A stretch of DNA of 64,000 bases from Clostridia bacterium (lineage in GTDB: Bacteria > Bacillota > Clostridia > RUG12999). The translations under genes were made by a program, and so were the position numbers. The notes beneath the pieces are model-generated. The model was given only the letters and a program-made list of their open reading frames with translations, was not told where the DNA came from and searched no databases. Below, piece by piece: positions 7,354 through 64,000 of the stretch (positions are counted from its first letter, which is position 1; every line of letters begins with the position of its first letter). The stretch is from NCBI GenBank assembly GCA_045534775.1, contig JAZSKI010000008.1, forward strand, positions 4,820 to 68,819, in the 5' to 3' direction.

Positions 7354-7393
7354 TATTGTACCTATAAATAAAATTTCAATGAGGTGAAGTAAA

Positions 7394-9217: not shown

Positions 9218-9248
9218 AATAAAAAAATTAAAAAAATTAAAAAAATGC

Positions 9249-9277
9249 TTGCTATTTGAATAAAAGTGTGATATAAT
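9249..9277 (+). promoter_or_regulatory. sigma-A promoter of the rimP-nusA-infB operon (TTGCTA - 17 nt - TGaTATAAT)
   Basis: -35 at 9249-9254, extended -10 at 9269-9277. Confidence 0.45.
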
Positions 9278-9302
9278 ATTTATATAGTAAGATAGTAACG
9301 AT

Positions 9303-9334
9303 AAAGAGTGGGTTGACAAAACCCACTCTTTTGC
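9303..9334 (+). promoter_or_regulatory. leader hairpin (terminator-like attenuator) between the promoter and the rimP RBS
   Basis: Perfect 12-bp stem AAAGAGTGGGTT / AACCCACTCTTT with a GACA loop at 9303-9330, followed by TTGCTTG. It sits 20 nt before the rimP start. Confidence 0.45.
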
Positions 9335-9352
9335 TTGGGCGGAGGTGATTTT

Positions 9353-9808
9353 TTGAATAAGATTGAAAGCGTTGTGCTTGGTTTGGCGGAACCGATTGCG
9401 GCGGCAGAGGGATGCTATATTTACGATGTGCAGTTTGTCAAGGAAGGAACGAGTAAGTTTCTGCGTGTCTTTGTTGACAGCGATGGTGGCATCAACGTAG
9501 ATGAGTGCGAAAAGATAAGCCGAAGGCTCAGTGATGAGCTGGATAAAAACGATCCTGTTGAAGGCAACTATTTTTTAGAGGTTTCTTCGCCCGGAATTGA
9601 ACGCAGGCTGACTCAGGGCTGGCACTACGAGAAATATAATATGTGCGAGGTTGATGTGAGTCTGTATTCTGCCGTAGACGGCAGTAAAAAGCTGAAAGGT
9701 CTTTTGAAAAGCGCGTCCGAAAATGAAATTGTGATTATATGTCCGGATACGGAAATAACACTGGCGAGGAAAAATATTGCAGCGGTTAATCTGCATTTTG
9801 ATTTTTAA
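9353..9808 (+). CDS. rimP: ribosome maturation factor RimP
   Basis: FLRVFVDSDGGINVDECEKISRRLSDELD...EVSSPGIERRL is typical of RimP. TTG 9353 with RBS GGAGGTG is preferred over the ORF-track start 9335. Confidence 0.8.
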   Translation: MNKIESVVLGLAEPIAAAEGCYIYDVQFVKEGTSKFLRVFVDSDGGINVDECEKISRRLSDELDKNDPVEGNYFLEVSSPGIERRLTQGWHYEKYNMCEVDVSLYSAVDGSKKLKGLLKSASENEIVIICPDTEITLARKNIAAVNLHFDF

Positions 9809-9829
9809 ATATTTGAGGGGGACTTAAAA

Positions 9830-11002
9830 ATGAAAAATGAACTTGGTGAGGCTTTAAGCCTGTTTGAAAAGGAAAAAGGTATTAACAAAGAGTACATTTT
9901 AGAAGCTCTTGAAACGGCACTTCTCCATTCCTATAAGAAAAATTATAAGGAATACAAGGAAGATGTATCAATCCGTATTGACGGAAAGACGGGTGATATT
10001 AAGGTAATATCAAAAAGAATAGTGGTTGAGAACATAGGCGACCTGGCAGAGTCTAACGAAATTCTTATTGAAGAAGCAAAGCTTATTAATAAGGACGTTA
10101 AAATAGGCGACTATGTGGAGGTTGAAATTCGTCCGAGAGATTTCGGAAGAATAGCGGCACAGACGGCAAAACAGATTATTTTACAAAAAATCCGTGAAGC
10201 TGAAAGGGAAAAGGTGCTTCGTGATTTCAATATCAGTGAAGGAGATATTATTTCGGGTACTGTTGACCGTGTGGAAAAAATACCTCTCAGAATACGTGAA
10301 GGGCAGGAAGTGCCTACAGAAGATAAGCCAAGATATAATGTTATTGTTAACATAGGTATGGCTGAAGCTGTTTTGCCACCAAGAGGGCAGGTAGCAACCG
10401 AAGCCTATACTCATGGCAAAAAAATGGCATTCTACGTTGCTGATATAAGCAATACTCCAAAAGGGCCTACAGTGCAGCTTTCAAGAACAAATCCCGATTT
10501 GGTAATAAAATTATTTGCCCGTGAAGTACCTGAAATTGCTGACGGCATAGTTGAAATAAAATCCGTTTCAAGAGAAGCAGGTGTCAGAAGTAAAATAGCA
10601 GTATTTTCCAACGATACGGATGTAGAGCCTGTAGGTGCTTGTGTAGGAAACAAGGGTATGCGTGTTAATAATGTGGTGGAGGAGCTGTGCGGCGAGAAAA
10701 TAGACATTGCCAAATACAGTGAAAATCCCATAGAATATATCGCTGCAGCAATAGCACCGGCTGAGGTTGTTAATGTAAGTATTAACGAAGAAGCTATAGC
10801 ATCGGGTAAAAAAGAAGCAACGGTTGTTGTAAATGAAAATCAGTTGTCGCTTGCTATCGGTAAAGAAGGTCTTAATGCAAGGCTTGCAGCAAAACTTGTA
10901 GGTTGGAAAATTGATATTAAAAGTGAAATACAATATGGTGATGATGTCCTGAAAACAGAAATATCCGAGGATACAGAAGAATTAACAGAAGTTGAAGAAT
11001 AA
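9830..11002 (+). CDS. nusA: transcription termination/antitermination factor NusA
   Basis: 390 aa. N-terminal domain, S1 and two KH domains (GxxG motif GNKGMRV; VNENQLSLAIGKEGLNARLAAKLVGWKIDI). Confidence 0.9.
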   Translation: MKNELGEALSLFEKEKGINKEYILEALETALLHSYKKNYKEYKEDVSIRIDGKTGDIKVISKRIVVENIGDLAESNEILIEEAKLINKDVKIGDYVEVEIRPRDFGRIAAQTAKQIILQKIREAEREKVLRDFNISEGDIISGTVDRVEKIPLRIREGQEVPTEDKPRYNVIVNIGMAEAVLPPRGQVATEAYTHGKKMAFYVADISNTPKGPTVQLSRTNPDLVIKLFAREVPEIADGIVEIKSVSREAGVRSKIAVFSNDTDVEPVGACVGNKGMRVNNVVEELCGEKIDIAKYSENPIEYIAAAIAPAEVVNVSINEEAIASGKKEATVVVNENQLSLAIGKEGLNARLAAKLVGWKIDIKSEIQYGDDVLKTEISEDTEELTEVEE

Positions 11003-11592: not shown

Positions 11593-13866
11593 ATGACGAA
11601 AATTAAAATTACAGAACTTGCAAAACAAGTTGGAATGACGGGGAAAGCTTTACTTGAAATACTTAAAGAAAAGGGTATAGAGAAAAAATCCAGCACCAGC
11701 AGTCTTGATGAAAATGAATTAAACTTAGCCTTTGAGATTCTGACTCAGATGTATGATGACGGAACGCCCGTAGATACCACGCATCCGAAAAAAGAAGAAA
11801 AGAAAAAACCTGAGAAGAAAACCGCTAAAAAAGAAAAAACGGCTGAAAAAGAAGAAGCTAAACCTGCGGAGGAGAAAGAACAGGAACCGGCTTCCGAAAT
11901 CCAAGAAGGAAAACGCTCCCGCTATGTAGACACAAGGGCGAATGCGGTGGATTTACAGAAATTTGAGGAGGAAAGCCGTCTCCAGGATATTTTGCCTGAG
12001 GTAGATGACAAAACCTCCAAAAAACAGAAGATTAAAAAAGGCGGTGGCAAAAACCGCAAGGAACAGCACGAAAATATAGATAAAATTCAGAAGGAAAAGA
12101 AAGAGAAAAAAGAAGAAATAAAAGTACTTATTCCTGATGAAATCACCGTAGGCGAGCTGGCTGAAAGACTATCCAAGCCCGCAACGGAAATCATTAAACG
12201 TCTGATGCTTCTCGGTACTATGGCAACCATAAATGATGTGCTGGAGTTCGATATGGCAACTCTGGTAGCAGAAGATATGGGTGCAGTCGTTGAAAGAGAA
12301 ATAATCATAACCGATGAGGATATTCTCTTTAATGATGTTCCCGATAATGAAGAAGATTTAGTGCCGCGTCCTCCCGTTGTAGTTGTAATGGGACACGTTG
12401 ACCACGGTAAAACCTCACTTCTTGACTCTATCAGAAAAACTAACGTAACCACAACGGAAGCAGGCGGTATTACACAGCATATCGGTGCTTACAGCGTTCA
12501 TATTCAGGACAGACCCATCACCTTCCTTGATACCCCCGGTCACGAAGCCTTTACGGCAATGCGACTCAGAGGTGCACAGGTGACGGATATTGCCATTATT
12601 GTAGTAGCGGCAGATGACGGTATTATGCCTCAGACTGTAGAAGCTATTAACCACGCTAAGGCGGCAGGGGTTACAATAATTGTAGCTATAAATAAAATTG
12701 ACCGTCAGGCGGCTAATGTGGAAAGAGTAAAACAGGAGCTTACCGAATATGACCTTCTCCCCGAGGATTGGGGCGGTGAAACTATATGTGTTCCCGTATC
12801 CGCACTTACAGGAGAGGGTATCGAGAACCTGCTGGAAATGGTATTGCTGGTTGCTGATATGAAAGAGCTTAAGGCTAATCCCAACAGAAAAGCAAAGGGT
12901 ACTATAGTAGAATCCCGTCTGGACAAGGCAAAGGGTACTGTTGCGACGGTGCTTGTACAAAACGGTACACTTAAGGTTGGTGACCTTATTGTAGCAGGAA
13001 CCTGTATGGGCAAAATCCGAGCAATGACCGACTACAGAGGCAAAAAAGCAACCGAAGCAGGCCCTTCCACGGCAGTGGAAATCTTAGGTCTTTCTGATGT
13101 ACCCGAAGGCGGCGATCTCTTTTATTGTGTTGAAAATGAAAGAATGGCTAAAAATGTTGTTGAAGCCAGAAAATTCAAGATTAAAGATGAAATGCAAAAT
13201 GCCAGGAAGCCTGTATCTCTTGATGACCTGTTCAGTCAGATTAATGCAGGTGATGTAAAAGACCTGAACATTATTGTAAAAGCCGATGTTCAAGGCTCGG
13301 TTGAAGCGGTTAAACAGTCGCTGCTCAAGCTTTCCAATGATGAGGTTCGTGTAAATATTATCCACGGCGGCGTAGGTGCTGTAAATGAATCTGATGTTAT
13401 GCTGGCAGATGCCTCAAACGCAATTATCGTAGGCTTTAATGTGCGTCCTACACCCGGTGCGGCGGATTCTGCCCACGATAAACAGGTTGACGTTCGTCTG
13501 TACAGAATTATTTATCAGGCTATAGAAGAAATAGAAGCGGCTATGAAGGGTATGCTCGCACCTCAGTTTAAAGAGGTTGTAACAGGTCACGCAGAGGCAC
13601 GTCAGCTCTTCAAGGTGTCGGGAGTTGGAACTATAGCAGGCTGTCACGTTACTGACGGTAAAATCGCCAGAAACAGCGGCGTTCGTATTGTTCGTGACGG
13701 TATAGTTGTGCACGAAGGCGTGCTGTCATCTCTCAAACGATTTAAAGACGATGCAAAAGAGGTTGCAGAAGGCTTTGAATGTGGTATGAGCTTTGAAAAG
13801 TTCAACGATTTAAAGGAAGGCGATATAATAGAAGCCTTTGTGATGGAAGAAATAGAAAGGACTTGA
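11593..13866 (+). CDS. infB: translation initiation factor IF-2
   Basis: K/E-rich N-terminal region. GTPase G1 [25 protein letters not shown]-terminal beta-barrels. ATG 11593 (RBS ACGGAGG) is preferred over TTG 11569. Confidence 0.9.
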
Positions 13867-51823: not shown

Positions 51824-52426
51824 ATGGATGTTAAGCTTATAACGGAAATTGCCGAAGAAAATATGAAAAACATAGTAAGTCACAGCGACCGCGAAAAGGG
51901 CTGGACTTTGGCACACGGAAAAAGAACGGCAAAGCTGGTAATAAACCTGCGAAAAAAACTGTTTCCCGGCAATACGGCATCTGACGAAGTGCTTTATACG
52001 GCGGCGTTGTTCCACGATATCGGCAGACAACACGAGAACCACGAGAAGGCAGGAGCAATTTTAACAAAAAATTTGCTTGACGAATACCTTACGTCTGAAG
52101 AAATGGACGAAATCAGCTATATTATATCCAACCATAACACATATAAAACCGCTATGACCGATAACCTGAAGCTGGTGCAGGACGCGGATATAATTGACCA
52201 CCACGGAGCTATGTTTATCTGGCTTACTATGCACATAGCGGCAGAGAAGGATATAAGTGTCGAAAAATGTCTTGAAATGTTCGCCGAATATAACACTCCC
52301 GATAATACTTTATGTAACGGCGAATTACTTAACTTTGATTTTTCAAAAGAAATTTTAAAATCAAGATATGCCTTTGAACAGCAGTTTTTTGAAAAATTAA
52401 GTCTTGAGCAGAAAGGTATTTTTTAA
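51824..52426 (+). CDS. HD-domain phosphohydrolase
   Basis: HGKRTAKLV...LFHDIGR (H..HD motif). Confidence 0.65.
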   Translation: MDVKLITEIAEENMKNIVSHSDREKGWTLAHGKRTAKLVINLRKKLFPGNTASDEVLYTAALFHDIGRQHENHEKAGAILTKNLLDEYLTSEEMDEISYIISNHNTYKTAMTDNLKLVQDADIIDHHGAMFIWLTMHIAAEKDISVEKCLEMFAEYNTPDNTLCNGELLNFDFSKEILKSRYAFEQQFFEKLSLEQKGIF

Positions 52427-52450
52427 ATCAGACTAAGATGAGCGTTCTTT

Positions 52451-52460
52451 GGTAATAATA
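52451..52460 (+). promoter_or_regulatory. candidate forespore sigma (sigF/sigG-type) -10 element GGTAATAATA upstream of sigG
   Basis: Matches the -10 consensus GGnrAnAhTr, about 38 nt before the sigG ATG. The -35 is not convincing. Confidence 0.25.
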
Positions 52461-52498
52461 TTAGTGAAAACCAATATTTTACCGGAGGATGCTTTTTT

Positions 52499-52786
52499 AT
52501 GACAAATAAGGTAGAAATTTGCGGAGTTAATACTTCAAAACTCCCGATTTTATCACGGGACCAAAAGAAGAAACTGTTTGAACAGATTAAACAAGGCAAT
52601 GCGGCGGCAAGAGACGAGTTTGTGCAGGGAAATTTAAGGTTGGTACTGAGTGTGCTCAAACGCTTTTCGGGCCGGGGAGAAAATATTGACGATTTATTTC
52701 AGGTAGGGTGCGTAGGTCTGATTAAGGCAATAGATAATTTTGATACAAGCCAGAACGTTCAGTTTTCCACCTACGCCGTACCCATG
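52499..52786 (+). pseudogene. sigG: 5' fragment of sporulation sigma factor sigma-G gene (regions 1.2 to mid-2), truncated after codon 96 by an insertion
   Basis: MTNKVEICGVNTSKLPIL...GNLRLVLSVLKRFSGRGENIDDLFQVGCVGLIKAIDNFDTSQNVQFSTYAVPM is collinear with Bacillus/Clostridium SigG through the conserved STYAVPM. The expected IIGEIRRYLRDN is replaced by unrelated sequence from 52787. The rest of the 272-aa ORF is a fused element gene. Confidence 0.75.
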
Positions 52787-52813
52787 AATGTACCTTGTAG
52801 AAATGAGGTATAT

Positions 52814-53317
52814 ATGAGACCAAGAAAATGGACGGAAACCGCTATAAAACAGGCTTTTGATGATTTTATTAGACAATATGATAGACTACCGACAAAACAG
52901 GAAATGTATGAAAAATATAATGGTAAATTCCCACGACCAATATCTGTAAAATTAACATTAGGAATAACATTAGATAAATATTTACAACTAAATTATACTA
53001 CACACTATAAAAGAAAACAAGCAAGAATTTATGGAGTTATGCCTGACGAATATTGGATTGAGGACTTTAAAAGACAGTATATAGAATATAATTACCCAGT
53101 TGAATGTATATATAATAAACTTCGTAAACCTCAAACACCAAACACCGAAACGTTGGCAAAGATTATAGGAGTAACGACTTGGTGTGAAGTTTTAGCCTAT
53201 TGTGGATTCGAAGAAGAAAAAACAGTCTTACACGGCGAATTGATTTTTGAAGAAACATTGGAAAATTATCAAAAGTTAAATACAAAATTACAAAAAATAC
53301 TTAAAGATTTAGAATAA
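52814..53317 (+). CDS. element-encoded hypothetical protein (own RBS GAGG and ATG; in frame with sigG 5' fragment)
   Basis: ATG 52814 preceded by AAATGAGGTATAT. 167 aa; MRPRKWTETAIKQAFDDFIRQYDRLPTKQEMYEKYNG... Hairpin AAGCCTTCGGGCTTATTTTTTTT terminator at 53318-53340. Confidence 0.5.
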   Translation: MRPRKWTETAIKQAFDDFIRQYDRLPTKQEMYEKYNGKFPRPISVKLTLGITLDKYLQLNYTTHYKRKQARIYGVMPDEYWIEDFKRQYIEYNYPVECIYNKLRKPQTPNTETLAKIIGVTTWCEVLAYCGFEEEKTVLHGELIFEETLENYQKLNTKLQKILKDLE

Positions 53318-53404
53318 GCCTTCGGGCTTATTTTTTTTGTGCAAACTTGAAAATAAATAGAGAATAATATAGTGTGGGTGGCTATTTAAACCAATTGAAG
53401 AAGA

Positions 53405-54199
53405 ATGGTAATTAAACACTCATTTTATCAGGAGGTGATAAACATAGACTGTAAACTTTGGCAAGGAGATTGCCTTAAATTGATGCAAAACATTGAAGAC
53501 AAAAGTGTTGATTGCATCATTGCTGACTTACCTTATGGAACTACAGCTTGCAAGTGGGATTCAGTGATAAATTTAGAACAATTATGGTCGCATTATAAAA
53601 GAATAATAAAAGATAAAGGTGCAATCATTCTTTTTGGACAAGAACCCTTTAGTAGCAAAGTAAGAAATTCAAATTTGGAGTGGTATAGATATGATTGGAT
53701 TTGGCAAAAACAAAAGCCATCTAATTTTCAGTTGATGAACTATCAGTGCGGTAGAGTACACGAAAATATAATGGTGTTTAGTCCTGCTAAAGCTTGTTAC
53801 ATTAAGAATGGCAATACAATGAATTACTATCCTCAAATGACAACTAGAGAAAATATTAGAAAAGCCAATGTAAAGATTTATGGTAATGCTGATAAAAATA
53901 TTTTACATAGTTACAAAAATGGAGAAAAAGATAATTATAAAGAATATTCTGAAAAACATCCAATTTCAATAATCCAATTTAACACAGAAATCAAAAAGAC
54001 CCATCAGGTACAAAAGCCGCTTGCTTTAATTGAATATTTAATCAAAACATACACAAAAGAGAACGATGTAGTATTGGATAACTGTATGGGGTCTGGTACA
54101 ACTGGCGTAGGATGTAAGAATCTAAATAGAAATTTCATAGGAATAGAATTGGACGAAGAGATATTTAAAGATGCTAAAAACAGAATATTTGGCAGTTAA
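53405..54199 (+). CDS. beta-class N6-adenine/N4-cytosine DNA methyltransferase (orphan)
   Basis: Motif IV-like IIADLPYG at the N-terminus. Motif I VLDNCMGSGTTGVGC near the C-terminus, the order typical of PF01555 MTases. Confidence 0.65.
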   Translation: MVIKHSFYQEVINIDCKLWQGDCLKLMQNIEDKSVDCIIADLPYGTTACKWDSVINLEQLWSHYKRIIKDKGAIILFGQEPFSSKVRNSNLEWYRYDWIWQKQKPSNFQLMNYQCGRVHENIMVFSPAKACYIKNGNTMNYYPQMTTRENIRKANVKIYGNADKNILHSYKNGEKDNYKEYSEKHPISIIQFNTEIKKTHQVQKPLALIEYLIKTYTKENDVVLDNCMGSGTTGVGCKNLNRNFIGIELDEEIFKDAKNRIFGS

Positions 54200-54211
54200 A
54201 ACATTTATTTT

Positions 54212-54493
54212 ATGGAGGTTTTTATGAGTATTATCGAGCGATTAAAACTATGGTATCGGCAGAATAAATGCAATCATAGCAATTTCAAAAATATATCATC
54301 GACCACATTTTTTATAGACAGTGCGAAAAGGTTCCCTGCTCGTACAACTTATATAAGAGAATGTACGGATTGTAGATTATTATATGAACAAGATTCTGTA
54401 CGTTTTTATAGAGCCGAAAATACTTATTCCATATTTCCTTCTAACCAAATCAGGAGATTAAGTAAAAAAGAAAGAGAAAAATTCGGTAAATAA
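54212..54493 (+). CDS. hypothetical protein (element)
   Basis: 93 aa, plus-strand, tightly packed with neighbours. Confidence 0.35.
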   Translation: MEVFMSIIERLKLWYRQNKCNHSNFKNISSTTFFIDSAKRFPARTTYIRECTDCRLLYEQDSVRFYRAENTYSIFPSNQIRRLSKKEREKFGK

Positions 54494-54500
54494 ATTTTTT

Positions 54501-54716
54501 ATGAGGGAGATTATTTCGGGAGATAACAGATGTGCAAGAATTTATGATTTAAAACAAAAGATTCAATATCCCCCCACCGATATAGGTACTTATGTCTTAG
54601 AAGAGGATATTGATTTGATGGATAGGGTGTTTGTCGATGATGGAAAGGTATCAACAATTATGACTGACACTATAGAGAATAAATTAATAATGACGTCGGT
54701 TAAAAAGAGGAGGTGA
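54501..54716 (+). CDS. hypothetical protein (element)
   Basis: 71 aa. RBS GGAGG precedes the ORF. Confidence 0.35.
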   Translation: MREIISGDNRCARIYDLKQKIQYPPTDIGTYVLEEDIDLMDRVFVDDGKVSTIMTDTIENKLIMTSVKKRR

Positions 54717-55444
54717 GATATATCGAGGTTAATAAAATTTACAATGAAGATTGTATTACATATATGAAAACATTACCAGAAAATTGTATAGACTTGATTA
54801 TTGCAGATCCACCCTATTATGGCATCTTAAAAGAAGACTGGGACAACCAATGGAAAACAGAAGAGGAGTATTTGCAATGGTGCGAGGAATGGACTGTAGA
54901 ATGTAGTCGTGTTTTAAAATCTGATGGAAGTTTTTATATTTGGGGATGTTTCGGAGAGAATAACTTGGTTTTTGCCAAGTATGCTTTAATTGCTAATAAG
55001 TATTTTGATTTTAAAAATTGGATTAACTGGCGAAAAGAATACGGATTTCGAGGCAAGACAAATTTTTCATACAAAAAAGAAGAATTGCTTTATTTTGTTA
55101 AAAATAAAACCAACTATAAGTTTAACTATTTCGATATTAAAGAACCAGCTACTCGAAGTGGAGCAAAAGAGGGCGATACAAGAGTGCCATCTAATATATG
55201 GGAGTTTAAATACAATAATGTTAGCAAAGAAAGAGTCAAAGGGTTTCCGTGTCAAAAACCTCTTGCAAGTGCTGAGAGAATAATCAAGGCAAGCAGCAAC
55301 GAAGGAGATTTAGTTTATATTCCATTTGCTGGTAGCGGAACGGAAATAGTGGGGTGTATAAATACAAATAGGAATTATATTGCAACCGAAATCAACAAGG
55401 AATATATTGATAAAATTATTTGTTGCCGAATGGATGTAAGATAG
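54713..55444 (+). CDS. beta-class N6-adenine/N4-cytosine DNA methyltransferase (second orphan MTase)
   Basis: Canonical motif IV LIIADPPYYG. Motif I VYIPFAGSGTEIVGC. Start uncertain (GTG 54713 directly abutting RBS AGGAGG). Confidence 0.65.
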   Translation: MRYIEVNKIYNEDCITYMKTLPENCIDLIIADPPYYGILKEDWDNQWKTEEEYLQWCEEWTVECSRVLKSDGSFYIWGCFGENNLVFAKYALIANKYFDFKNWINWRKEYGFRGKTNFSYKKEELLYFVKNKTNYKFNYFDIKEPATRSGAKEGDTRVPSNIWEFKYNNVSKERVKGFPCQKPLASAERIIKASSNEGDLVYIPFAGSGTEIVGCINTNRNYIATEINKEYIDKIICCRMDVR

Positions 55445-55478
55445 AATACACATTTCATGGTGGAAATTGAGGTGAAAT

Positions 55479-55796
55479 ATGAGGATAAGAGTTTGGAATT
55501 ACGGTCAATCAATAGTAATTGAGGACGATAAAAAGAATGAAATTTTATCTTGGTTCTTTCAAAATGAGAAGCAATCAACTCTTTTTGTTCTGATAGAGAC
55601 AAAAAACAAACCTGTGTGGAAAACCTACAATATAAATTACAATTATCATAATGATACATTTTATATTAACAATATAAGTGCTGAAGGTGAAGAAGAGAGA
55701 TATGTATTTGTTGAAAAAGATGAAAATGTATTGAACTATTTTATGATTGATACGGACGAGATAATGGATTATAAGGAGAGTGTCTTTGATGAGTAA
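55479..55796 (+). CDS. hypothetical protein (element)
   Basis: 105 aa. Confidence 0.35.
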   Translation: MRIRVWNYGQSIVIEDDKKNEILSWFFQNEKQSTLFVLIETKNKPVWKTYNINYNYHNDTFYINNISAEGEEERYVFVEKDENVLNYFMIDTDEIMDYKESVFDE

Positions 55797-56088
55797 ATTC
55801 AATTTTACTGGGTTACTTGCGGTAGTCAAAGCATTACATACAACAGCTACAAAAGACGACACCAAAGCAGTAATTATATCCGACAAAGTTAAAAATGACA
55901 CAACTATTGAGTTTAAGAATGGGAGTTATCTTAAGGTGTTGACACCAAAGGGAGAATGTGCGAGAGGTAATCGCTCTAAAATCATATATCCTTTATGTAA
56001 TAACGATGGTACTGTTAATTACTACTTTGACCAAGAGATGCTTGATGAAGTTTTGGCTCCATTCTGTAATAAGGAGGGCAACGAATGA
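55780..56088 (+). CDS. hypothetical protein (element)
   Basis: 102 aa. Confidence 0.35.
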   Translation: MSLMSKFNFTGLLAVVKALHTTATKDDTKAVIISDKVKNDTTIEFKNGSYLKVLTPKGECARGNRSKIIYPLCNNDGTVNYYFDQEMLDEVLAPFCNKEGNE

Positions 56089-56450
56089 GTTATGATGTTT
56101 CATTTAAAGTAAAAGTCGAAGGGCTTGAAGACACGTATGTAGATGTGGGCGAATGCGATGCAAATATAACATGGAATGTAAGAGAAATGATTGTAAAGTC
56201 TACCGGACTTGAATGGAAGAATGAGCAAAACAATGGTCTCTGCAAAGATGTAATTCCTTATATTGCGAATGGCTATGCCGAGTTGACTAAACATCCAGAG
56301 AAATACAAACAGTACGAAGCGAAGAATGGTTGGGGAACTGTTCAAGGATGCAAGAAGTTTTTTGCACAGATTATTCACGACTGGAATGCGTTTTGTGAAG
56401 ATTATTGTACGGGCGAACTTGCAGACGTAACATATTTTTGGATTGAGTGA
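56085..56450 (+). CDS. hypothetical protein (element)
   Basis: 121 aa, overlapping start/stop with neighbour. Confidence 0.35.
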   Translation: MSYDVSFKVKVEGLEDTYVDVGECDANITWNVREMIVKSTGLEWKNEQNNGLCKDVIPYIANGYAELTKHPEKYKQYEAKNGWGTVQGCKKFFAQIIHDWNAFCEDYCTGELADVTYFWIE

Positions 56451-56459
56451 GGTGGGTAA

Positions 56460-56780
56460 ATGGAAAATACAAAGAGTGTTGGCGAAGCTTTTAAGATTCT
56501 ATTAGACCGATTAAGAAAGACGGATTTGACTCCAAAACAAACTGAGCGTCCTGAAGGATATGGTTGTTTAGAATGTAAACACTACCAAAGAAGAGAGGTT
56601 TACAACCAGCAGTGGGGAATGTTTCAGTTTGGTCAGTTTAAATGCAAAAAGCAACCTGACAGAAATATGATGTTTCATGAAAATCATTATTATGATAAAT
56701 CAAAAGGTGAGTGTCCGTACTTTGAACGAGGCGAAAATGAATTGATTTATATGACTGAAAAAGAGAAGAGGCAATATTAA
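56460..56780 (+). CDS. hypothetical Cys-containing protein (element)
   Basis: 106 aa; CLECKHY...CKK...ECPYFE suggests a small zinc-binding protein. Confidence 0.35.
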   Translation: MENTKSVGEAFKILLDRLRKTDLTPKQTERPEGYGCLECKHYQRREVYNQQWGMFQFGQFKCKKQPDRNMMFHENHYYDKSKGECPYFERGENELIYMTEKEKRQY

Positions 56781-56837
56781 TACATATAGAATTTCTCTTT
56801 TATCGAGAAATTTATGGAGAATAATTAGGTAGAGGTG

Positions 56838-57011
56838 ATGAAAATTTATAAATGGTATGCATTTTGGGTTTTACTTATTATGTTCATAGTAAGCGTTATA
56901 GTAGTGGTTTTGAGTATAATTAGCGACGACGATAAGGCGTTAATTATAGGTTCTGGGCTATCAGGAATTTTCGGTGCTTCTACCTTAATTTATTGGCTAA
57001 CAGAACTTTAA
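56838..57011 (+). CDS. small single/double-TM membrane protein (57 aa), element-encoded; below ORF-track cut-off
   Basis: ATG after GGTAGAGGTG. MKIYKWYAFWVLLIMFIVSVIVVVLSIISDDDKALIIGSGLSGIFGASTLIYWLTEL. Confidence 0.3.
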   Translation: MKIYKWYAFWVLLIMFIVSVIVVVLSIISDDDKALIIGSGLSGIFGASTLIYWLTEL

Positions 57012-57069
57012 TATTTTAGAAGGAGGATGAGTTGAGCGCTCACAAAATTGCAATTTCTCCTAAAGAATA

Positions 57070-57612
57070 TTGATTGAATTAAGACAGGCGAAGAAATCTG
57101 ATAAGGATGTGCAGTATTTAATGTCTATCCACTACTCACATCCAAAAGGATTTGTGGGGAGACAACTGATTTACAAAGTATTTGACAATGAAGAATTTGT
57201 TGGAGTAATCGTTGGTGGCAGTGCTACGTTACATCTACCGGGACGAAATGAGTTTTTCGGAGACAAGTATTACATAAATGGAATTATAAACAATAACTTT
57301 TTTCATCTCATAGATAATCACGGCGATAAAAATCTTGGCACAAAAGTCTTAGCCAAGTGGCGAAAACAAGTGATTACAGATTGGGAAGAAAGATACAAAG
57401 ATAAAGTGATTGGTTTTGAAAGCCTTGTGGAACTACCAAGAACGGGAGCGATGTACAAAGCTGATAACTGGACTGAGGTAGGAGTTACAAAAGGGTTTAC
57501 TTGCAGACGAGTTCCGGGCAAAGAAACAGGAGTTTTTACAGGTGGGAAGCGAGTTTGGAATACAAATCCTGATGAATTAAAACCCAAATTGGTATTTTGC
57601 AAGAAAATCTAA
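57070..57612 (+). CDS. hypothetical protein (element); start uncertain (possibly ATG 57121)
   Basis: 180 aa by ORF track, no recognisable motif. Confidence 0.3.
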   Translation: MIELRQAKKSDKDVQYLMSIHYSHPKGFVGRQLIYKVFDNEEFVGVIVGGSATLHLPGRNEFFGDKYYINGIINNNFFHLIDNHGDKNLGTKVLAKWRKQVITDWEERYKDKVIGFESLVELPRTGAMYKADNWTEVGVTKGFTCRRVPGKETGVFTGGKRVWNTNPDELKPKLVFCKKI

Positions 57613-57674
57613 AAACTACGATTCCAGAAATGGCTTAAATAGGGCGTTTCAGAGCCTAAAAATCACGATGAAAT

Positions 57675-57929
57675 TTGAGTTTTAAGGAGATTTTAATGAA
57701 TATTACAATTCGAGAGCGAGAGACGGCAGAACTCAATCCTTGCGATTGTGGGGAATATCCAAAGTTTTTTCAACGAGATATTCACTATACAGACCTGTGG
57801 CTTGAGTGTCCAAAGTGTAAAAAGAGAACCGTAAACACAGGCGGATATCACTATGCCAGTGAAATACCATTGTATATAGCAAAGAAAAATGCAGTAATTG
57901 CTTGGAATAAAGGAGAATTTGCAAATTGA
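57675..57929 (+). CDS. hypothetical Cys-rich small protein (element)
   Basis: 84 aa; CDCGEYPKFF...CPKCKKRT suggests a zinc ribbon. Confidence 0.35.
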   Translation: MSFKEILMNITIRERETAELNPCDCGEYPKFFQRDIHYTDLWLECPKCKKRTVNTGGYHYASEIPLYIAKKNAVIAWNKGEFAN

Positions 57930-58165
57930 CAATAACAAGAAAACGATGGGTGATTATTAAAGATGACAAAATCTTTTGTGGTTTGGCTCAAAATTATAGA
58001 TTTAAACCCATAGATGATATTGGAGACACTGCCATCAAAACCTATACAAGTAAAAAGAAAGCAGAATCTTCTTTTGAAAGTAGTTGGTCTGGTGGTGAAG
58101 AATTATTAAAAACAGGACAAGCAAAAGCAATAGAAATTGTCGAAAGTTTAATTTCTGTTGAATAA
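57926..58165 (+). CDS. hypothetical protein (element)
   Basis: 79 aa. Confidence 0.3.
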   Translation: MTITRKRWVIIKDDKIFCGLAQNYRFKPIDDIGDTAIKTYTSKKKAESSFESSWSGGEELLKTGQAKAIEIVESLISVE

Positions 58166-58333
58166 AAAAGAGAGAATATATAAATAGAAGGTGCTACGGT
58201 TTAGACTCCTCCAAACACGTGTGGAAATGAGGGGAATGTAGGCGTGCCGAAGCTAAGTGTAAGTAGGCTTAAAAATGCAGTTTGAAAATCGAGCAGTAGT
58301 TAAATGGAGTTTGATGAACAGCCTTCTTCAAAT

Positions 58334-58394
58334 GGGATAGTAACTCAGTTGGCAAGAGGAAATTGTGTCGTCGGTTCGAGTCCGACCTATCCCA
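58334..58394 (+). other. tRNA-derived element lacking the anticodon arm (61 nt): acceptor plus D-arm plus T-arm only
   Basis: GGGATAG-TA-ACTCAGTTGGCAAGAGG (near-canonical D-arm) then AAATTGTGTC then GTCGG-TTCGAGT-CCGAC (canonical T-arm) then CTATCCC-A. The acceptor strands are perfectly complementary. Only 10 nt lie where the 17-nt anticodon arm plus variable loop should be. Confidence 0.5.
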
Positions 58395-58541
58395 AACGAT
58401 TATTAATGGAACGTGCCAAGACATTGATAAGCACAATGCTATCATAGATAGTTATGCAAACAACGAAAACGGGCACAGATAAGTGTAAAGCAGGTCTGTA
58501 TGCCACATTAATAATCAAAATTTTTATAAGGAGATGATAAT

Positions 58542-58754
58542 TTGTCTTATTTGGACAAGGACGATCAACCTTGCATTTATTGTGAAAACATTTCTATGAT
58601 ATTTATGGAAGATAGCATGCATCCATCGTGTATTGCAGGTAGATGTTGGATGTGCCAAACGGCGTCGGGATGTGATTGCGAAGATTTTGAACAGGTTAGT
58701 ACGGAAGAACAACAGAGGCGGTTATTATACGGCTTTGAAGCTGAAGATATATAA
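58542..58754 (+). CDS. hypothetical Cys-rich protein (element)
   Basis: 70 aa; CIYCEN...HPSCIAGRCWMCQTASGCDCED. Confidence 0.35.
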   Translation: MSYLDKDDQPCIYCENISMIFMEDSMHPSCIAGRCWMCQTASGCDCEDFEQVSTEEQQRRLLYGFEAEDI

Positions 58755-58781
58755 CCAGATAAAACCACGCTTCTATCAAGC

Positions 58782-59222
58782 GTGAGAAAGGAGATTTTTA
58801 TGAAAAGCATATTTAGAAGAAAAGAGATTGAAAAAATATACGAAATAGATAATTATAAATATTTTCTGCTCAAAGAAGATGATTATGATTCTATAAATAT
58901 GTCTATTCGGCATGGTGACATTGTATCTGATAAAACCATCGGGGAGTATGATGTTGAAATGCCACTATTGGAAGTGGGCGACGAATTCTTGTTATCTGAT
59001 ATTCAAGAGGCTGTAAAAATTAAAAGCAAGATGCGTAGCAGTGACGACTCGAACACTTATTATGTCATGGATAAGTTAGTAAATACAGAAAATACAATAA
59101 GAACAAAAGCTGAGTGCGATATGGTTATGAAAGATTTTAAAGAAATAAAAGACAAATATAGTAATTATATGAAGAAATACAAATATAAGCACAGATTTTT
59201 CAACAAAAAGTGCTCAGAATAA
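58782..59222 (+). CDS. hypothetical protein (element)
   Basis: 146 aa. Confidence 0.35.
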   Translation: MRKEIFMKSIFRRKEIEKIYEIDNYKYFLLKEDDYDSINMSIRHGDIVSDKTIGEYDVEMPLLEVGDEFLLSDIQEAVKIKSKMRSSDDSNTYYVMDKLVNTENTIRTKAECDMVMKDFKEIKDKYSNYMKKYKYKHRFFNKKCSE

Positions 59223-59256
59223 CCCAATAGAACAAGTCTTTTAACTGGAGGTAGAT

Positions 59257-59586
59257 ATGATAACAAAAAGAGAATTTTGTGAAGTAATAAGCAAGTTGAA
59301 ACAAAACGACGATTTTCTTAACGACCTCTGTGATGTGTTTAGAAAACACCAAAGAGAAGACCAAGTTTATTCAACCGGACTTGAGGATGTAGTTGTAAAT
59401 CTATTGGAACTAATCTTTGATGATAAAGAAAACCAATGGATTGCCTATTGGATATGGGAATGTAATTATGGGGAAACATATGAAGATGGTGATGTGACTG
59501 AATCGGATGGCACTCCTATTCCGCTAAAAACAGCCAAAGAATTATATAATTTTCTTATAGAAAATATGGAGAGAAAAAATGATTAA
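59257..59586 (+). CDS. hypothetical protein (element)
   Basis: 109 aa. Confidence 0.35.
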   Translation: MITKREFCEVISKLKQNDDFLNDLCDVFRKHQREDQVYSTGLEDVVVNLLELIFDDKENQWIAYWIWECNYGETYEDGDVTESDGTPIPLKTAKELYNFLIENMERKND

Positions 59587-59836
59587 ATACGAAAATCACT
59601 GTTGTGACTGTGCGGTACCGGGATATCCTTGTATGGGTAGTTTTTGTCCCTATATAAATGTGCCTGTATATTACTGCGATTCTTGTAACAATGATATATA
59701 TGCAGAATATGAAATTGATGGTGGACACTATTGCGAGGACTGCACGAAAAAATATTTGAGAGAGACTTTTGATAATTTGACATTATCAGAACAGGCAGAA
59801 TTATTAGAAATTGATATGAAAGGTTTGGAAGGTTAA
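59579..59836 (+). CDS. hypothetical Cys-rich zinc-finger protein (element)
   Basis: 85 aa; HCCDCAVPGYPCMGSFCPY...CDSCNND...CEDC. Confidence 0.35.
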   Translation: MIKYENHCCDCAVPGYPCMGSFCPYINVPVYYCDSCNNDIYAEYEIDGGHYCEDCTKKYLRETFDNLTLSEQAELLEIDMKGLEG

Positions 59837-59837
59837 T

Positions 59838-60164
59838 ATGAGTGAAGAAATATGCGTTTCGTGCGAAGCGCCAATTGCAACTGAAAGTGGAATATTATGT
59901 AACAAATGCATGGAAGTTGAACCGAGGTTTGATACGATTAAAATTACTGTATTTTTAAATAGGATTGTTGACGTTCAAGATTTTATTAGTTTGGTTTCAA
60001 AATGCGATGACGATGTAACAATTGGTTCAGGTAGATTTGCAGTGAATGCGAAATCTATAATGGGGATTTTTAGTCTCGACCTATCTAAGCCCTTAAAAGT
60101 AGAGTTTTACGGAAATATCCCCTATGAAGTTAAAGAAGGTATGAAAAAATTTATTGTAAATTGA
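59838..60164 (+). CDS. zinc-ribbon protein with C-terminal HPr-like (PTS phosphocarrier fold) domain
   Basis: N-terminal CVSCEAP...CNKC. C-terminal FAVNAKSIMGIFSLDLSKPLKVEFYG resembles the HPr core (VNLKSIMGVMSLGVAKGAEITI). Confidence 0.35.
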   Translation: MSEEICVSCEAPIATESGILCNKCMEVEPRFDTIKITVFLNRIVDVQDFISLVSKCDDDVTIGSGRFAVNAKSIMGIFSLDLSKPLKVEFYGNIPYEVKEGMKKFIVN

Positions 60165-60292
60165 GGTGATGGATACTGAAAACAATATTTAATTTTATTG
60201 CAGATGATTGGAAGAGGGTAAAAAACCATTGTCGGACAACGGATAACAAAGACTTTACTGAAAATGATGCGACAGATACTTTCAAAAAGAAA

Positions 60293-60796
60293 TTGCTGAT
60301 TTCAGAACATTCTCCAATAAGACTTTTAGAGTTTGATTGGTCGTGGAAATCAATTTATTATTGGCTTAGTACGGAGTGGTCAAGACATAAATTCGAGAAA
60401 TTTATAAGTAGCCAAAGAAATGATAGGTTAGTTGATGATACACCAAGAGGGAAGAAACCGCAGGATGCCTTAGTAAATTTTGATGGCTATGCCAATATGC
60501 AAAACCTAATAGATGCTTGGAGAAAAAGATTGTGTCGAGCAGCAACAGATGAAGCGAGAGAATTAGCCGAAGATTTCAAGGAAGAACTACATAAAACACA
60601 CCCTTTAGAATCTGATGTTCTTGTTCCAAACTGTATATATAGAGCAGGGTGTCCTGAGTTTCATTGTTGTAGTTATATAGGCAAGTTTGTAAAATGGGCA
60701 AAAGACAACAGCAAAGACATTCCTTGGTTAGATATTCAGGGAAGATACGACTTATATAATGAGTATTTTTATAGTACAAGGGAGGAAAATAATTGA
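60293..60796 (+). CDS. hypothetical protein (element)
   Basis: 167 aa. Confidence 0.3.
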   Translation: MLISEHSPIRLLEFDWSWKSIYYWLSTEWSRHKFEKFISSQRNDRLVDDTPRGKKPQDALVNFDGYANMQNLIDAWRKRLCRAATDEARELAEDFKEELHKTHPLESDVLVPNCIYRAGCPEFHCCSYIGKFVKWAKDNSKDIPWLDIQGRYDLYNEYFYSTREENN

Positions 60797-61347
60797 AAAA
60801 AGTATATGTTACTAATGGAAGTGCCGAGAATGGCAAAGATAGTTTCGCCGATTTTGTAGGCAAATATATATCTACATACAAATATTCATCAATAGACCTT
60901 GTGAAAGAAATGTTTGAGGTTGTTGGGGTAAGCAAAAAAGAAAAGACCGAAAAGAAACGTAGGTTGTGGAGCGATGGAAAAGACTTGCTAACCGAATACG
61001 ATGACATTCCATTTAAAGATGTCACATCAATTGTTACTGATTTCAAAAACAACAAGATAGAAGCCGAGGTTTTGCTTATCGATATTAGAGAGCCTGAAGA
61101 AATTGCTCGTGCCGTAGAGACATTTGGAGCAGAAACAATTCTTGTTCGTAATCCTAATGCTATAAAAATTGAGAGCAACCATGCAGACCGAGATGTTGAA
61201 AATTATGAATATGATTACATAATTGAGAACGATGGCACACTTGAACAGTTAGAAAAAGTGGCTAAATTCTTTGTAAGAGAGATAATCTGTTGGTCTGAAA
61301 TTCCCGGACATGAAAAACCGCTTGTTTTGACTTGTAGCAAGTATTAG
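60793..61347 (+). CDS. deoxynucleoside-monophosphate kinase-like P-loop protein (phage dNMP kinase family)
   Basis: N-terminal KKVYVTNGSAENGKDSFADFVGKY resembles the phage dNMP kinase N-terminus (MKLIFLSGVKRSGKDTTADF). Confidence 0.45.
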   Translation: MKKVYVTNGSAENGKDSFADFVGKYISTYKYSSIDLVKEMFEVVGVSKKEKTEKKRRLWSDGKDLLTEYDDIPFKDVTSIVTDFKNNKIEAEVLLIDIREPEEIARAVETFGAETILVRNPNAIKIESNHADRDVENYEYDYIIENDGTLEQLEKVAKFFVREIICWSEIPGHEKPLVLTCSKY

Positions 61348-61357
61348 GAGGAACAGT

Positions 61358-61798
61358 ATGAACAATACATATCAAATATACACCTGTGGCGGTATGGGTA
61401 AATTCGGCAAAGAGAATTTCGATAAAGGCAATGCTTGGAGAAGATATTGTAAACAGGCATTGGAGACCTGCGAGTGTGATTACAAGGTAAATGTCATAAA
61501 CCCTAATGATTATTTTAATTTTGTTGATGAACCACCACAGTATCAATCGCAGTTAGAGGTAATGAATCTCGATATGCATAAACTTCGCAATTCTGATTTG
61601 GTTATTGCAAACTTCAATGACATGTACTCCTTGGGAAGTATGGCTGAGTTAGCAATAGCACACGAAAGAAGAATTCCGGTTATCGGTCTTGATATAGATG
61701 AGCAAGCTCTTCATCCTTGGCAAGTCTGTATGTGTGAACGTATATTTAACAACATAGACGAAATGCTTGATTATATTCAAGACTTTTATCTAAGGTAA
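61358..61798 (+). CDS. nucleoside 2-deoxyribosyltransferase-like protein
   Basis: 146 aa. YTCGGMGKFGKENFDKGNAWRR...VINPNDYF...DLVIANFNDMYSLGSMAELAIAHERRIPVIGL matches the Rossmann-like deoxyribosyltransferase layout. Confidence 0.45.
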   Translation: MNNTYQIYTCGGMGKFGKENFDKGNAWRRYCKQALETCECDYKVNVINPNDYFNFVDEPPQYQSQLEVMNLDMHKLRNSDLVIANFNDMYSLGSMAELAIAHERRIPVIGLDIDEQALHPWQVCMCERIFNNIDEMLDYIQDFYLR

Positions 61799-61946
61799 TG
61801 GAGAATAATATTATGGAAGCAAAATTCAACTTTGATGATTTCTATAACAAGCTAACAGATGTAGAGATTGGAATTTAGGAGAATGCGAGAAATGCGAATT
61901 TGTTTCTCGCTTCACTTTTAATAAAACATAGGAGGTAAAATTTATT

Positions 61947-64000
61947 GACAACAGTAGAAAAATGGCTTGGAAATGAAAACACTCTTGGTATTGATATATG
62001 GAGAAATAAATACCAGTACGAAGATGAAACATTTGAAGAATGGCTCGATAGAGTGTCAAACGGCGACAACGATTTAAGAAAGTTAATTGAAGAAAAGAAA
62101 TTCCTTTTTGGCGGTAGAATTCTTGCAAATCGTGGACTCTATAAAAGAGGTAAAAAAATTACATATTCAAACTGTTATGTGCTTTCAGAACCTGAAGACA
62201 ACATCGAGAGTATATTTGAATGTGCTAAAAAACTTGCAAGAACATTCAGTTATGGCGGAGGATGTGGAATCGACATCTCAAAACTCAGCCCTAAAGGTGC
62301 AAAAATAAACAATGCTGCAAAAGAAACAAGTGGTGCAGTATCATTTATGGACTTATACTCAATGATAACAGGTTTGATAGGTCAAGGAGGACGCAGGGGA
62401 GCTTTAATGCTTTCGATTGACTGTTCGCATCCTGACCTTGAAGATTTTATTGGTATTAAGTCGGACTTAGAAAGAGTTACCAAGGCTAACATATCAGTTA
62501 AAATGTCAAACGAGTTTATGAATGCAGTTCAGAATAATGAAGACTACACATTAAAATTCACAAGAGTTGAAACTGGCGAGAATATTACAAAGACGGTTAA
62601 GGCAAAAGAATTATTTAAGAAACTTTGCGAAATGAATTGGGATATGGCAGAGCCGGGTATATTATTTTGGGATAATATCACTGGATATAATCTTATGAGT
62701 AACACAGAAGATTTTAGGTATGCTGGCACAAATCCGTGCGCAGAGGAACCACTTCCGCCGGGCGGGTCGTGTTTGCTCGGCAGTATTAATCTTAATGCTT
62801 TCGTAGATAAAAATAGCAAGACATTTAACTTTGACGAGTTCAAAAATGCAGTAAAAATATCTGTTAGGGCTCTTAACGATGTGCTTGACGAAGGACTGCC
62901 ACTTCATCCGTTACAGGAACAAAGAGATAGTGTAAGAGATTGGAGACAAATCGGGCTTGGCATTATGGGTATTGCAGATATGCTCATCAATATGGGTATT
63001 ACATATGGCTCTGGCGAATCAATCAAATTGTGTGATGAGATAGGGTTTGTTATGGCAAATACAGCAATAAAAACTTCTGCAAAACTTGCAAAAGAATATG
63101 GTGCGTTCCCGAAATGTAAGACTAATAATATAATCACAACAGACTATTTTATTAATAATACAGATGAAAAGACAAGAGATTTGGTTATGGAGTACGGGCT
63201 GAGAAATAGTCAGATACTTACCATAGCACCAACGGGTTCTATTTCTACAATGCTACAAATTAGCGGAGGTATTGAGCCTATATTTGCAAACTATTATACA
63301 AGAAAAACAGAATCTCTACATAATGAAACTGTTGAATATAAGGTATACACCCCAATAGTTAAAGATTATATGGACAACCATAATATGACTGACGATAAAT
63401 ACCTTCCTGAGTTTTTTATCACAGCACAAAACCTCGACTATAAAAACAGAGTTGATATGCAGTCCGTATGGCAGAAACATATTGATGCATCAATTTCATC
63501 TACAGTAAATCTTCCTCACGAAACAACTATTGAGCAGGTTGAAGAACTTTATTCTTACGCTTGGCAAAATGGATTAAAGGGTATTACGGTTTACCGAGAT
63601 GGCTGTAAACGAAGTGGTATTCTTACCACAGACAGCACAAAGACTGACGGCAAACCTTTTGAGTTATCAAGAGGTGACATTATAGAGGTCAATGATGATG
63701 TAATAGGTAAGAAACGCAAGCTTACTACAGGATGTGGTAGTCTACATTGTTCCGCTTTCTTCGACCCCGCAACAGGAGAACTTCTTGAAACATACTTTAG
63801 CAAAGGTTCAACTGGCGGATGCAACAACTTTATGATTGGACTTTCAAGAATGATTTCTCTACTTGCGAGAAGTGGAGTTAACATACATACAATCGTAGAA
63901 CAACTTAATAGTTGTGGCGTATGCCCATCGTATGCAGTAAGACACGCAACAAAGAAAGATACATCAAAAGGGTCTTGTTGTCCCGTTGCGATAGGGTATG
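61947..64000 (+). CDS. ribonucleotide reductase, class II (NrdJ-like), 5' partial (runs off window end)
   Basis: Not in the ORF track (no stop in window). TTG 61947 after AGGAGGT. Manual translation is stop-free to 64000. Active-site GTNPCAEEPLPPGGSCLLGSINL (NPC[AG]E motif), C-terminal ...GLKGITVYRDGCKRSGIL... and a Cys-rich tail. Confidence 0.6.

Follow-up and report, generated by a model that had tools for sequence, protein, structure and literature searches.

We analysed a 64,000-nucleotide stretch of a Clostridia bacterium genome (GenBank assembly GCA_045534775.1, contig JAZSKI010000008.1, positions 4,820 to 68,819 of the forward strand), called the window below and numbered from its first letter, in which a phage interrupts the coding sequence of sigG, the sporulation-specific gene for the forespore sigma factor. 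A forward-strand open reading frame (ORF; 52499..53317) is SigG over residues 1–96, the N-terminal half, which score 168.5 bits on the NF006071 equivalog (profile positions 3–97 of 258) and 160 bits on TIGR02850. SigG is the best of the sigma models for this half, ahead of SigF (97 bits), SigK (75 bits), and SigE (66 bits). The match stops at FSTYAVPM, whose codon 96 (ATG) occupies 52784–52786, the point at which the initial annotation of this DNA had also placed the end of recognizable SigG. Because regions 2.4–4 are missing, the whole ORF reaches 167 bits on NF006071, below the curated cut-off of 372. The half that is present has lost none of the 52 positions at which intact SigG N-terminal halves are at least 95% conserved; it is 86% identical to an intact SigG (P0048), and the nearest metagenomic sigG is 84% identical. 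A tblastn search of both strands of the whole 64-kb window with an intact SigG recovered residues 1–96 only, with no 3′ half and no other sigma gene, and the GC content goes from about 0.40 before the break to 0.30–0.36 after it. The features at the break, including the left attachment site (attL) and the first gene of the element, which we call ph167, are the following.

52431..52459, forward strand: sigG promoter of the forespore (sigma-F/G) type, with GACTA at 52431–52435, a 15-nt spacer, and GGTAATAAT at 52451–52459
52499..52782, forward strand: host sigG 5′ half, codons 1–94 plus two bases of the codon for proline 95 (Pro95), with ribosome-binding site GGAGG at 52484–52488
52781..52782, forward strand: inferred crossover CC, the first two bases of the Pro95 codon and centre of attL, from comparison with attachment sites (attP, attL, attR) of relatives
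52783..52813, forward strand: phage arm of attL (P′ arm, CATGAATGTACCTTGTAG...) and ribosome-binding site of the first phage gene; the arm matches the right attP arm (GATGAATGTCACTTGTCG) of L004, a free phage relative, and that of other relatives
52814..53317, forward strand: ph167, first gene of the element, continuing the frame of the sigG 5′ half (chimeric ORF 52499–53317)
53311..53334, forward strand: intrinsic-terminator-like hairpin, 10-bp stem and T run, directly 3′ of the ph167 stop

The sigG promoter reaches 13.5 bits when scored with a matrix derived from 37 intact sigG promoters (consensus G[T/A]ATA-N14/15-GGAAATA[A/C]T), a motif match that is the only one of at least 12 bits on the forward strand within 52301–64000, and the closest intact sigG (L006/L007) has an identical −10 element, GGTAATAAT. 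Past the break the annotation had described unrelated sequence with its own ribosome-binding site and an ATG at 52814, then a run of phage-like genes with no 3′ half of sigG, and each of these points held. Nine linker codons separate the SigG half from the ATG, which is preceded by GAGG and opens the 167-residue ph167, a protein without sigma-factor similarity; the phage-type genes farther on, all on the forward strand, include methyltransferases, a Mom/DruA-like gene, and nucleotide-metabolism genes. Upstream of ph167, in the orientation of the window, lies the forespore-type promoter of sigG and no other, and given the hairpin at 53311–53334, the sigG 5′ half and ph167 would therefore form a discrete transcript from that promoter. 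Ph167 consists of two helical, winged-helix-like repeats and probably binds nucleic acid; fold searches with it returned no significant PDB or viral match and a weak winged-helix/LOTUS resemblance.

The origin of the junction can be read from relatives. A protein search with the chimeric ORF returned eight other chimeras, in which different SigG N-terminal halves end at FSTYAVP(M) and pass into ph167-like sequence, together with about 37 free-standing ph167 homologues of 166–178 residues. L004 is a phage-like ENA contig of about 115 kb with genes for DNA polymerase III alpha, YopX, Mom, ThyX, and NrdD. Its large serine recombinase (LSR; 450 residues, with Resolvase, Recombinase, and Zn-ribbon domains) is encoded by a gene that ends 25 bp before the ph167 homologue, in the order small ORF, LSR, palindromic phage attachment site (attP) of about 38 bp, ph167. 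This attP between LSR and ph167 is an imperfect dyad, CGACAAAGTACGTTCAT-TCCG-ATGAATGTCACTTGTCG, with no sigma fragment at it, and no sigma gene is present in the 20.5 kb of L004 that were examined. The sites with which it is compared are these.

attL, window: GCCGTACC, then CATGAATGTACCTTGTAG across the junction
attB (bacterial attachment site), closest intact sigG (L006): GCTGTACCTATGATTATTGG

Alignment of attL, attB, and attP therefore resolves the window into the left arm of attB, the CC, and the right arm of attP; an attB rebuilt in the window's genome would read GTACC, then NATGATTAT... Because the element is collinear with L004 beyond ph167 (itself 72% identical), it is a mosaic relative of the L004 phage. 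By these comparisons the window very probably holds the attL of a large temperate LSR phage integrated at the CC of the Pro95 codon of sigG, and the structural claim of LSR integration in sigG looks close to certain. The window's LSR must adjoin the sigG 3′ half, beyond the window end. The annotation had also pointed to a GTACC-catgaat-GTACC arrangement at the left junction. That sequence is present at 52778–52794, but it is not a duplicated core: the direct repeat was rejected as recombination core because the comparisons of attP, attL, and attR place the crossover at the CC of 52781–52782. Searches of the element's DNA against GenBank phages, and of ph167 against GenBank phages and IMG/VR, gave no match, and a search for an empty site in close relatives with the upstream HD-domain gene as probe found none.

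A scan of one representative genome for each GTDB species, based on aligned LSR homologues, yielded at least 323 relatives, of which the best 80 were kept. Of these best 80 loci, 61 carry a sigG fragment, and 53 have no more than tens of bases between the LSR stop and the sigG junction. The annotation had predicted a nearby large serine recombinase and a sigG 3′ fragment beginning near IIGEIRRYLRDN, and both predictions hold in the relatives: the L004 recombinase sits beside the ph167 homologue, the LSR abuts a sigG half in 53 loci, the 3′ half, from IIGEIRRYLRDN, directly follows the LSR in 14 loci, and both halves surround a complete prophage in four IMG/VR contigs (29.6, 56.1, 56.6, and 61.0 kb). 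Carriers include Lachnospiraceae, Oscillospiraceae, Defluviitaleaceae, Monoglobaceae, and other Clostridia, among them the isolate C64_1 (Lachnospiraceae, MGBC000228) and the complete genome CP176394, and the elements range from remnants of 2.5 kb up to contigs of 157 kb. An unbiased sample, the 80 metagenomic sigG genes closest to that of the window, contains two split genes (L092 and L122); that of L092 lies on a 617-kb contig, after sigE. The claim that a phage element splits sigG is thus borne out by the drop in GC, by the attP of L004, and by the recurrence of the junction in relatives.

The recombinases at this site are diverse. The integrases of the IMG/VR sigG prophages (classes C, D, and E) are LSRs that are 34%–41% identical to the window-type family, and those of classes D and E, although 75% identical to each other, insert in opposite orientation. 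Resolvase, Recombinase, and Zn-ribbon domains are found in the relatives' LSRs (P0127 and classes C, D, and E; phrog_95 integrase, E = 4e-116). The attL/attR pairs of whole prophages share the CC plus one or two bases only, and the shared CC in such divergent enzymes means that a single dinucleotide of sigG is the common target of at least three LSR families. By sequence comparison, then, LSR elements that share the sigG CC site are a broad and widespread set in Clostridia, and apparently an undescribed one. IMG/VR has about 20 viral contigs that terminate in the 5′ half of sigG and about 25 that terminate in the 3′ half, the gene being cut by the prophage boundary. These approximately 45 viral-classed contigs that end in half of a host sigG are L183–L203 and L219–L240.

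The elements are found in two orientations. In type A (14 loci), the one inferred for the window, the 3′ half comes directly after the LSR and shares its strand; in type B (39 loci) it is the 5′ half that the LSR faces. Both types intermingle in the LSR tree, and L004, with its type A attP, is 83% identical to the type B L010. The existence of both orientations is likely due to the near-palindromic arms of attP, whose asymmetry is confined to the 4-bp centre: this centre is TCCG or TCCA in type A and the complement in type B (for example, GGGA in L017). We infer that the crossover falls in the central CC/GG, the first two bases of the invariant Pro95 codon, and that a flipped attP centre flips the orientation of insertion. 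The IMG/VR phage L174 has an attP with perfect 18-bp inverted arms (TCGACTAGGTACATTCAT-CGGC-ATGAATGTACCTAGTCGA), and L174 (free) and L173 (integrated), from one dataset, are 95% identical up to exactly the junction point. Across L174, L004, and their relatives, attB and attP share 7–9 bp, and the attP is a dyad of about 40 bp around a 2-bp crossover, with no target duplication. The frame through the junction is open in 8 of 10 type A junctions, so a lysogen could possibly make a chimeric protein of SigG regions 1.2–2.3 (core-binding) and ph167. That the SigG(1–96)–ph167 fusion is meaningful was not supported: an open frame is expected by chance in about 60% of cases, the linker being only 9–14 codons long, and a stop interrupts it in L033 and P0049.

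The smallest elements are no longer phages. In L033, a Defluviitaleaceae metagenome-assembled genome, 2.5 kb hold on one strand the sigG 5′ half, a ph167-like gene, tRNA-Thr, tRNA-Trp, the small ORF, the LSR, and the sigG 3′ half. The complete genome CP176394 (L064; Oscillospiraceae LBM23126) has the order spoIIGA, sigE, sigG 5′ half, 6.8 kb of element, sigG 3′ half, and the sigE directly upstream is intact and passes both SigE cut-offs. Its element carries the small ORF and LSR at the edge, no phage genes, and no ph167 homologue; the cargo (4703–9643) comprises a CoA-disulfide reductase with a rhodanese tail, a SelL-related peroxiredoxin-like protein, MarR and LysR regulators, and a sulfite-reductase-like 4Fe-4S protein. 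L030, of 14.7 kb, likewise has non-phage cargo. The 2.5-kb and 6.8-kb remnants both retain an intact LSR and small ORF, and when their sigG halves are joined in silico at the CC, the products are SigG proteins of 261 (L033) and 256 (L064) residues that contain FSTYAVPMIIGEIRRYLRDN and score 465.8 and 419.3 bits, respectively, against the cut-off of 372.

The same is seen across the set. Full-length, stop-free halves make up 54 of 55 at the 5′ side and 16 of 20 at the 3′ side, and positions at least 95% conserved in intact genes are kept at 94% (5′ halves) and 97% (3′ halves) versus 99% in intact genes, part of this gap being due to the phylogenetically narrower reference set of intact genes. 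Split sigG halves thus look as healthy as intact genes, which suggests that the gene is still in use.

Some further loci are less easily placed. The two tRNA genes of L033, tRNA-Thr(GGT) and tRNA-Trp(CCA), lie at 9503–9692, between the ph167-like gene and the LSR. In termite-gut Defluviitaleaceae (L001/L002:10001–20954), a fusion of the sigG 5′ half with a ph167-like sequence precedes non-phage cargo that extends for at least 10 kb and encodes an S41 peptidase, ABC/FtsX transporters, and an RCC1-repeat protein, and a contig from the same sample with LSR and sigG 3′ half (L038) may be the other end of this element. L050 (3090–7242) has the small ORF, LSR, and sigG 3′ half after the housekeeping genes rimI and tsaD on an 8.7-kb contig that lacks the 5′ half; a rearrangement, a very large element, or a mis-assembly are possible.

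In family I as well as classes C, D, and E, the LSR is immediately preceded by a conserved ORF of 31–60 residues (MKIxRY[V/I]NGKK...). Examples are located as follows.

L004: 8385–8555
L050: 5265–5393
L033: about 9786–9980
L064: about 9720–9850
L224: about 2420–2545

With the sigG-promoter matrix applied to the 80 nt upstream and a threshold of 8 bits, 13 of 28 small-ORF loci have a match, compared to 17 of 1,083 control ORF upstreams (p = 6e-15, Fisher test; the loci are related, so independence is overstated). Dinucleotide shuffles give an expectation of 0.28 ± 0.53. The distance from the motif to the small-ORF start is constant (−46 to −63 nt), and scores are 17.9 bits in L004, 13.7–15.9 in class C, and 11.4 in class E (L189, about 48 nt upstream). 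The small ORF has no Pfam or PHROG match. Many LSR genes have in addition a sigma-A-like promoter in their leader, followed by a hairpin and U-run, which looks like a terminator or attenuator gating LSR expression. Such a near-consensus promoter, then hairpin, U-run, and ribosome-binding site, lies between small ORF and LSR in L004 (about 8560–8620), L020, L036, L037, L064, and L077.

Ph167 had at first been favoured as the directionality factor of the recombinase, on account of its wiring between the sigG promoter and a terminator. It was downgraded because it is absent from L064 and is not behind the sigG promoter in the opposite orientation, and the small ORF beside the LSR is the better candidate.

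These observations can be combined into a model in which excision of the sigG prophage is triggered in the forespore, a reading that we hold to be somewhat probable. In vegetative cells the prophage would be stable, with sigG off in any case. After asymmetric division, forespore sigma-F would transcribe the small ORF, whose product has the size of a recombination directionality factor (that of SprB, Skr, and CD1234), and in the type A orientation of the window ph167 would also be transcribed, from the sigG promoter. The LSR would then recombine attL and attR precisely, and sigG, rebuilt behind its own promoter, would yield sigma-G. The excised circle would stay in the non-dividing forespore and could reintegrate at germination. 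An LSR without its directionality factor only integrates, as is established for SprA and others, and reintegration after germination is for that reason mechanistically simple. The full cycle, a programmed and reversible germline rearrangement in which sigma-F switches on the factor, the factor drives excision, the circle (perhaps a whole phage of 30–150 kb) rides in the spore, and the LSR reinserts it at germination, is a more speculative step, and we consider it rather unlikely. The annotation had named three outcomes, namely forespore excision, asporogeny, and an active-lysogeny switch; the evidence leans to the first, short of proof.

Several points weigh against forespore excision. The right junction, the LSR, and the small ORF of the window's prophage lie outside the window, and with them its full extent. 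Forespore excision would cost the element its place in the germline unless it reintegrated, and a second intact sigG may exist elsewhere in the same genome. The commoner type B orientation leaves ph167 off the sigG promoter, which there reads antisense into the LSR, and L064 has an element without a ph167 homologue. Homology searches, and fold searches in the case of ph167, revealed no likeness of either candidate to a known directionality factor. The promoter before the small ORF is a motif match that can also be read as a weak sigma-A promoter (TTGTTT ... AATAAT), class D (L230) has no promoter match upstream of its small ORF, and the enrichment in 13 of 28 comes from kin loci rather than independent samples. 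Small ORF and motif also occur beside LSRs that are not in sigG (L053, L054, L057, L058, L070, L079, L082, and L088), and this wiring is therefore not specific to sigG. In L054 the LSR is flanked by genes for an ECF-transporter ATPase and a large secreted protein, with no obvious sporulation target found there.

The strongest competitor is a passive knock-out, in which phages use a near-invariant stretch of sigG that is dispensable for growth, lysogens cannot finish sporulation, sigG returns only on induction or loss of the prophage, and the promoter motif is coincidental or serves another use. We regard it as a real possibility, though a doubtful one. The insertion point is in the most conserved part of sigG (FSTYAVPMIIGEI), and its use by three divergent LSR families is what one would expect of a conserved spot where insertion is safe; most carriers resemble complete phages (30–157 kb), split genes are only about 2 of 80 in the sample so that carriage could be transient, intact halves are also what recent insertion predicts, and the commoner orientation gives no link from the sigG promoter to element genes. 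The non-phage remnants are harder to reconcile with it: L033 (2.5 kb), L064 (6.8 kb, with redox cargo), and L030 (14.7 kb) are unable to spread as phages and nevertheless keep an intact LSR, a small ORF, and undecayed halves, and the split sigG of L064 adjoins an intact sigE. The strong enrichment of a sigG-promoter-like motif 5′ of the small ORF also speaks against a passive role. A sigG mutant still enters sporulation and then dies, so a permanent block would be costly in transmissible gut spore-formers.

A prophage might instead supply its own sigma-F/G-like factor and replace sigma-G without excision. Phage-encoded sigF/sigG homologues exist, IMG/VR holds viral contigs with full-length sigma genes that are 23%–53% identical to SigG, and most of the window's element lies beyond the window end. 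Against this, there is no sigma gene in the element's 11.2 kb in the window or in the 20.5 kb of L004, the L033 and L064 remnants encode no sigma factor, and the intact state of the split halves would be left unexplained; we find such a bypass very improbable. That the fragment is not the host gene at all, being a phage-borne or paralogous sigma remnant or an assembly chimera, could be argued from the apparently draft source contig and from the lack of spoIIGA-sigE immediately before the window's sigG, but is scarcely credible given the host-like GC and core chromosomal genes before the fragment (hisD, ilvE, nusA, infB, an RluA-family synthase, and an HD-domain protein), a sigG-type promoter kept as in the closest intact sigG, a free phage relative (L004) without sigma fragment at its attP, and a junction found again in over 50 independent assemblies, one of them a complete genome in which it follows spoIIGA-sigE. 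From a reading of the ORF list, secD/secF-like ORFs are also upstream of the window's sigG.

The described split sporulation genes are sigK, spsM, spoVFB, spoVR, gerE, yabG, cotJC, and spoIIID, all of them mother-cell genes with excision confined to that cell. The annotation had said as much of the known intervening elements, and the published descriptions agree; likewise, it knew of no sigG case, and our search of the openly searchable literature for sigG or spoIIIG with a prophage, recombinase, intervening element, or interrupted gene found none (subscription-only literature being outside its scope). Reviews up to 2026 cite only skin and SP-beta as elements of this kind, and studies of sporulation genes carried by phages are silent on sigG as an attachment site. 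Forespore-triggered excision would depart from the usual pattern in the cell concerned. The mother cell dies, so excision there costs the element no inheritance, which is the accepted reason that such elements are tolerated. The sigG elements appear to be the first case of a split sporulation gene in the cell that becomes the spore.

The closest parallel is skin in sigK (SpoIVCA/Skr in B. subtilis, CD1231/CD1234 in C. difficile), likewise a sporulation sigma gene split by a prophage-derived element. There too an LSR lies at the edge beside a gene half, precise excision rebuilds the ORF (here in silico, for L033 and L064), elements differ from species to species in orientation and in size (the smallest about 2.6 kb), and a small directionality factor is under sporulation-sigma control (here a candidate only). 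Unlike skin, the target is sigG, in the forespore and germline rather than a terminal mother cell, the candidate control promoter is of the sigma-F type instead of sigma-E/K, and the site is common to active phages of 30–157 kb, with excision here a prediction from sequence. SP-beta in spsM (SprA/SprB) is similar in being a large active phage (134 kb) in a sporulation gene, in having an LSR expressed on its own with a factor of about 58 residues switched on by a sporulation promoter (here again a candidate), and in placing the recombinase and flanking genes at opposite ends of the prophage, adjacent in the circle. It differs in that excision of SP-beta is restricted to the mother cell and the spore genome retains the prophage, whereas sigG excision would take place in the spore-forming cell; the sigG LSR is only distantly related to SprA, and a homologue of SprB was not found.

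Prophages of the Listeria phi10403S/A118 type in comK also place an LSR-family integrase in a conserved developmental regulator gene, with a model of reversible excision without lysis followed by reintegration, and the A118 integrase is a detectable relative. Their trigger is the mammalian phagosome, not a compartment-specific sigma factor, and reversibility for sigG is a proposal. In Anabaena, the fdxN element (XisF), like other heterocyst excisions, restores a gene through LSR excision timed by development, which is what is proposed here, but does so in terminal cells and in another phylum; the N-terminal domain of the sigG LSR scores 137.9 bits on the XisF model, and the full-length protein falls far below the cut-off of 375. 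The phage-encoded sigF/sigG homologues of Schwartz et al. resemble our case in that sigG-like sequence is on viral-classed contigs. They are complete sigma genes inside phage genomes, whereas here half of a host sigG is at the prophage edge.

A recurrent insertion point in sigG breaks the mother-cell-only rule, and raises the question of DNA rearrangement as part of the development of the spore lineage and of how an element stays in that lineage. Should the reversible germline rearrangement be true, spores would be a phage vehicle and a phage-controlled check-point, a strategy common to gut phages and domesticated remnants. There are also practical consequences. The sporulation capacity of gut Clostridia may be mis-scored where a split sigG is called as two fragments or a pseudogene, and viral contigs that end in half a sigG could be mistaken in surveys for phages with sporulation sigma genes. 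Cultured carriers exist, including the complete genome CP176394, and three LSR families with one sharp attB and mapped attP sites are material for work on recombinase specificity and control of orientation.

Beyond ph167, the element in the window has the following features.

53405..54199, forward strand: DNA methyltransferase, N6/N4 type (PF01555, E = 7e-32)
54713..55444, forward strand: second DNA methyltransferase, N6/N4 type (PF01555, E = 3e-47)
57070..57612, forward strand: Mom-like/DruA-like DNA-modification protein (PF14236, 29.4 bits; phrog_1384 Mom-like; the L004 Mom gene is syntenic)
58334..58394, forward strand: tRNA-like element of 61 nt with a shortened anticodon arm (Rfam tRNA, 42.2 bits, region searched alone)
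60793..61347, forward strand: dNMP kinase-like protein (PF21448, 29 bits; 70% identity to L004 15570–15914)
61358..61798, forward strand: nucleoside 2-deoxyribosyltransferase-like protein (PF05014, 29.7 bits; 75% identity to L004 16540–16980)
61945..64000, forward strand: phage ribonucleotide reductase with a TTG start, cut by the window end (PF02867, E = 3e-110, plus TSCPD domain)

A ThyX-like fragment is also among the element genes. The tRNA-like element was not called by ARAGORN or by the Rfam run on the whole window; it is conserved in L004 at the syntenic position 13554–13634. Rfam found no riboswitch or intron in the window's element, including 61813–61944. This last interval holds a short ORF (MEAKFNFDDFYNKLTDVEIGI) just before the ribonucleotide reductase gene, and a hairpin with a 10-bp stem at 61885–61910.

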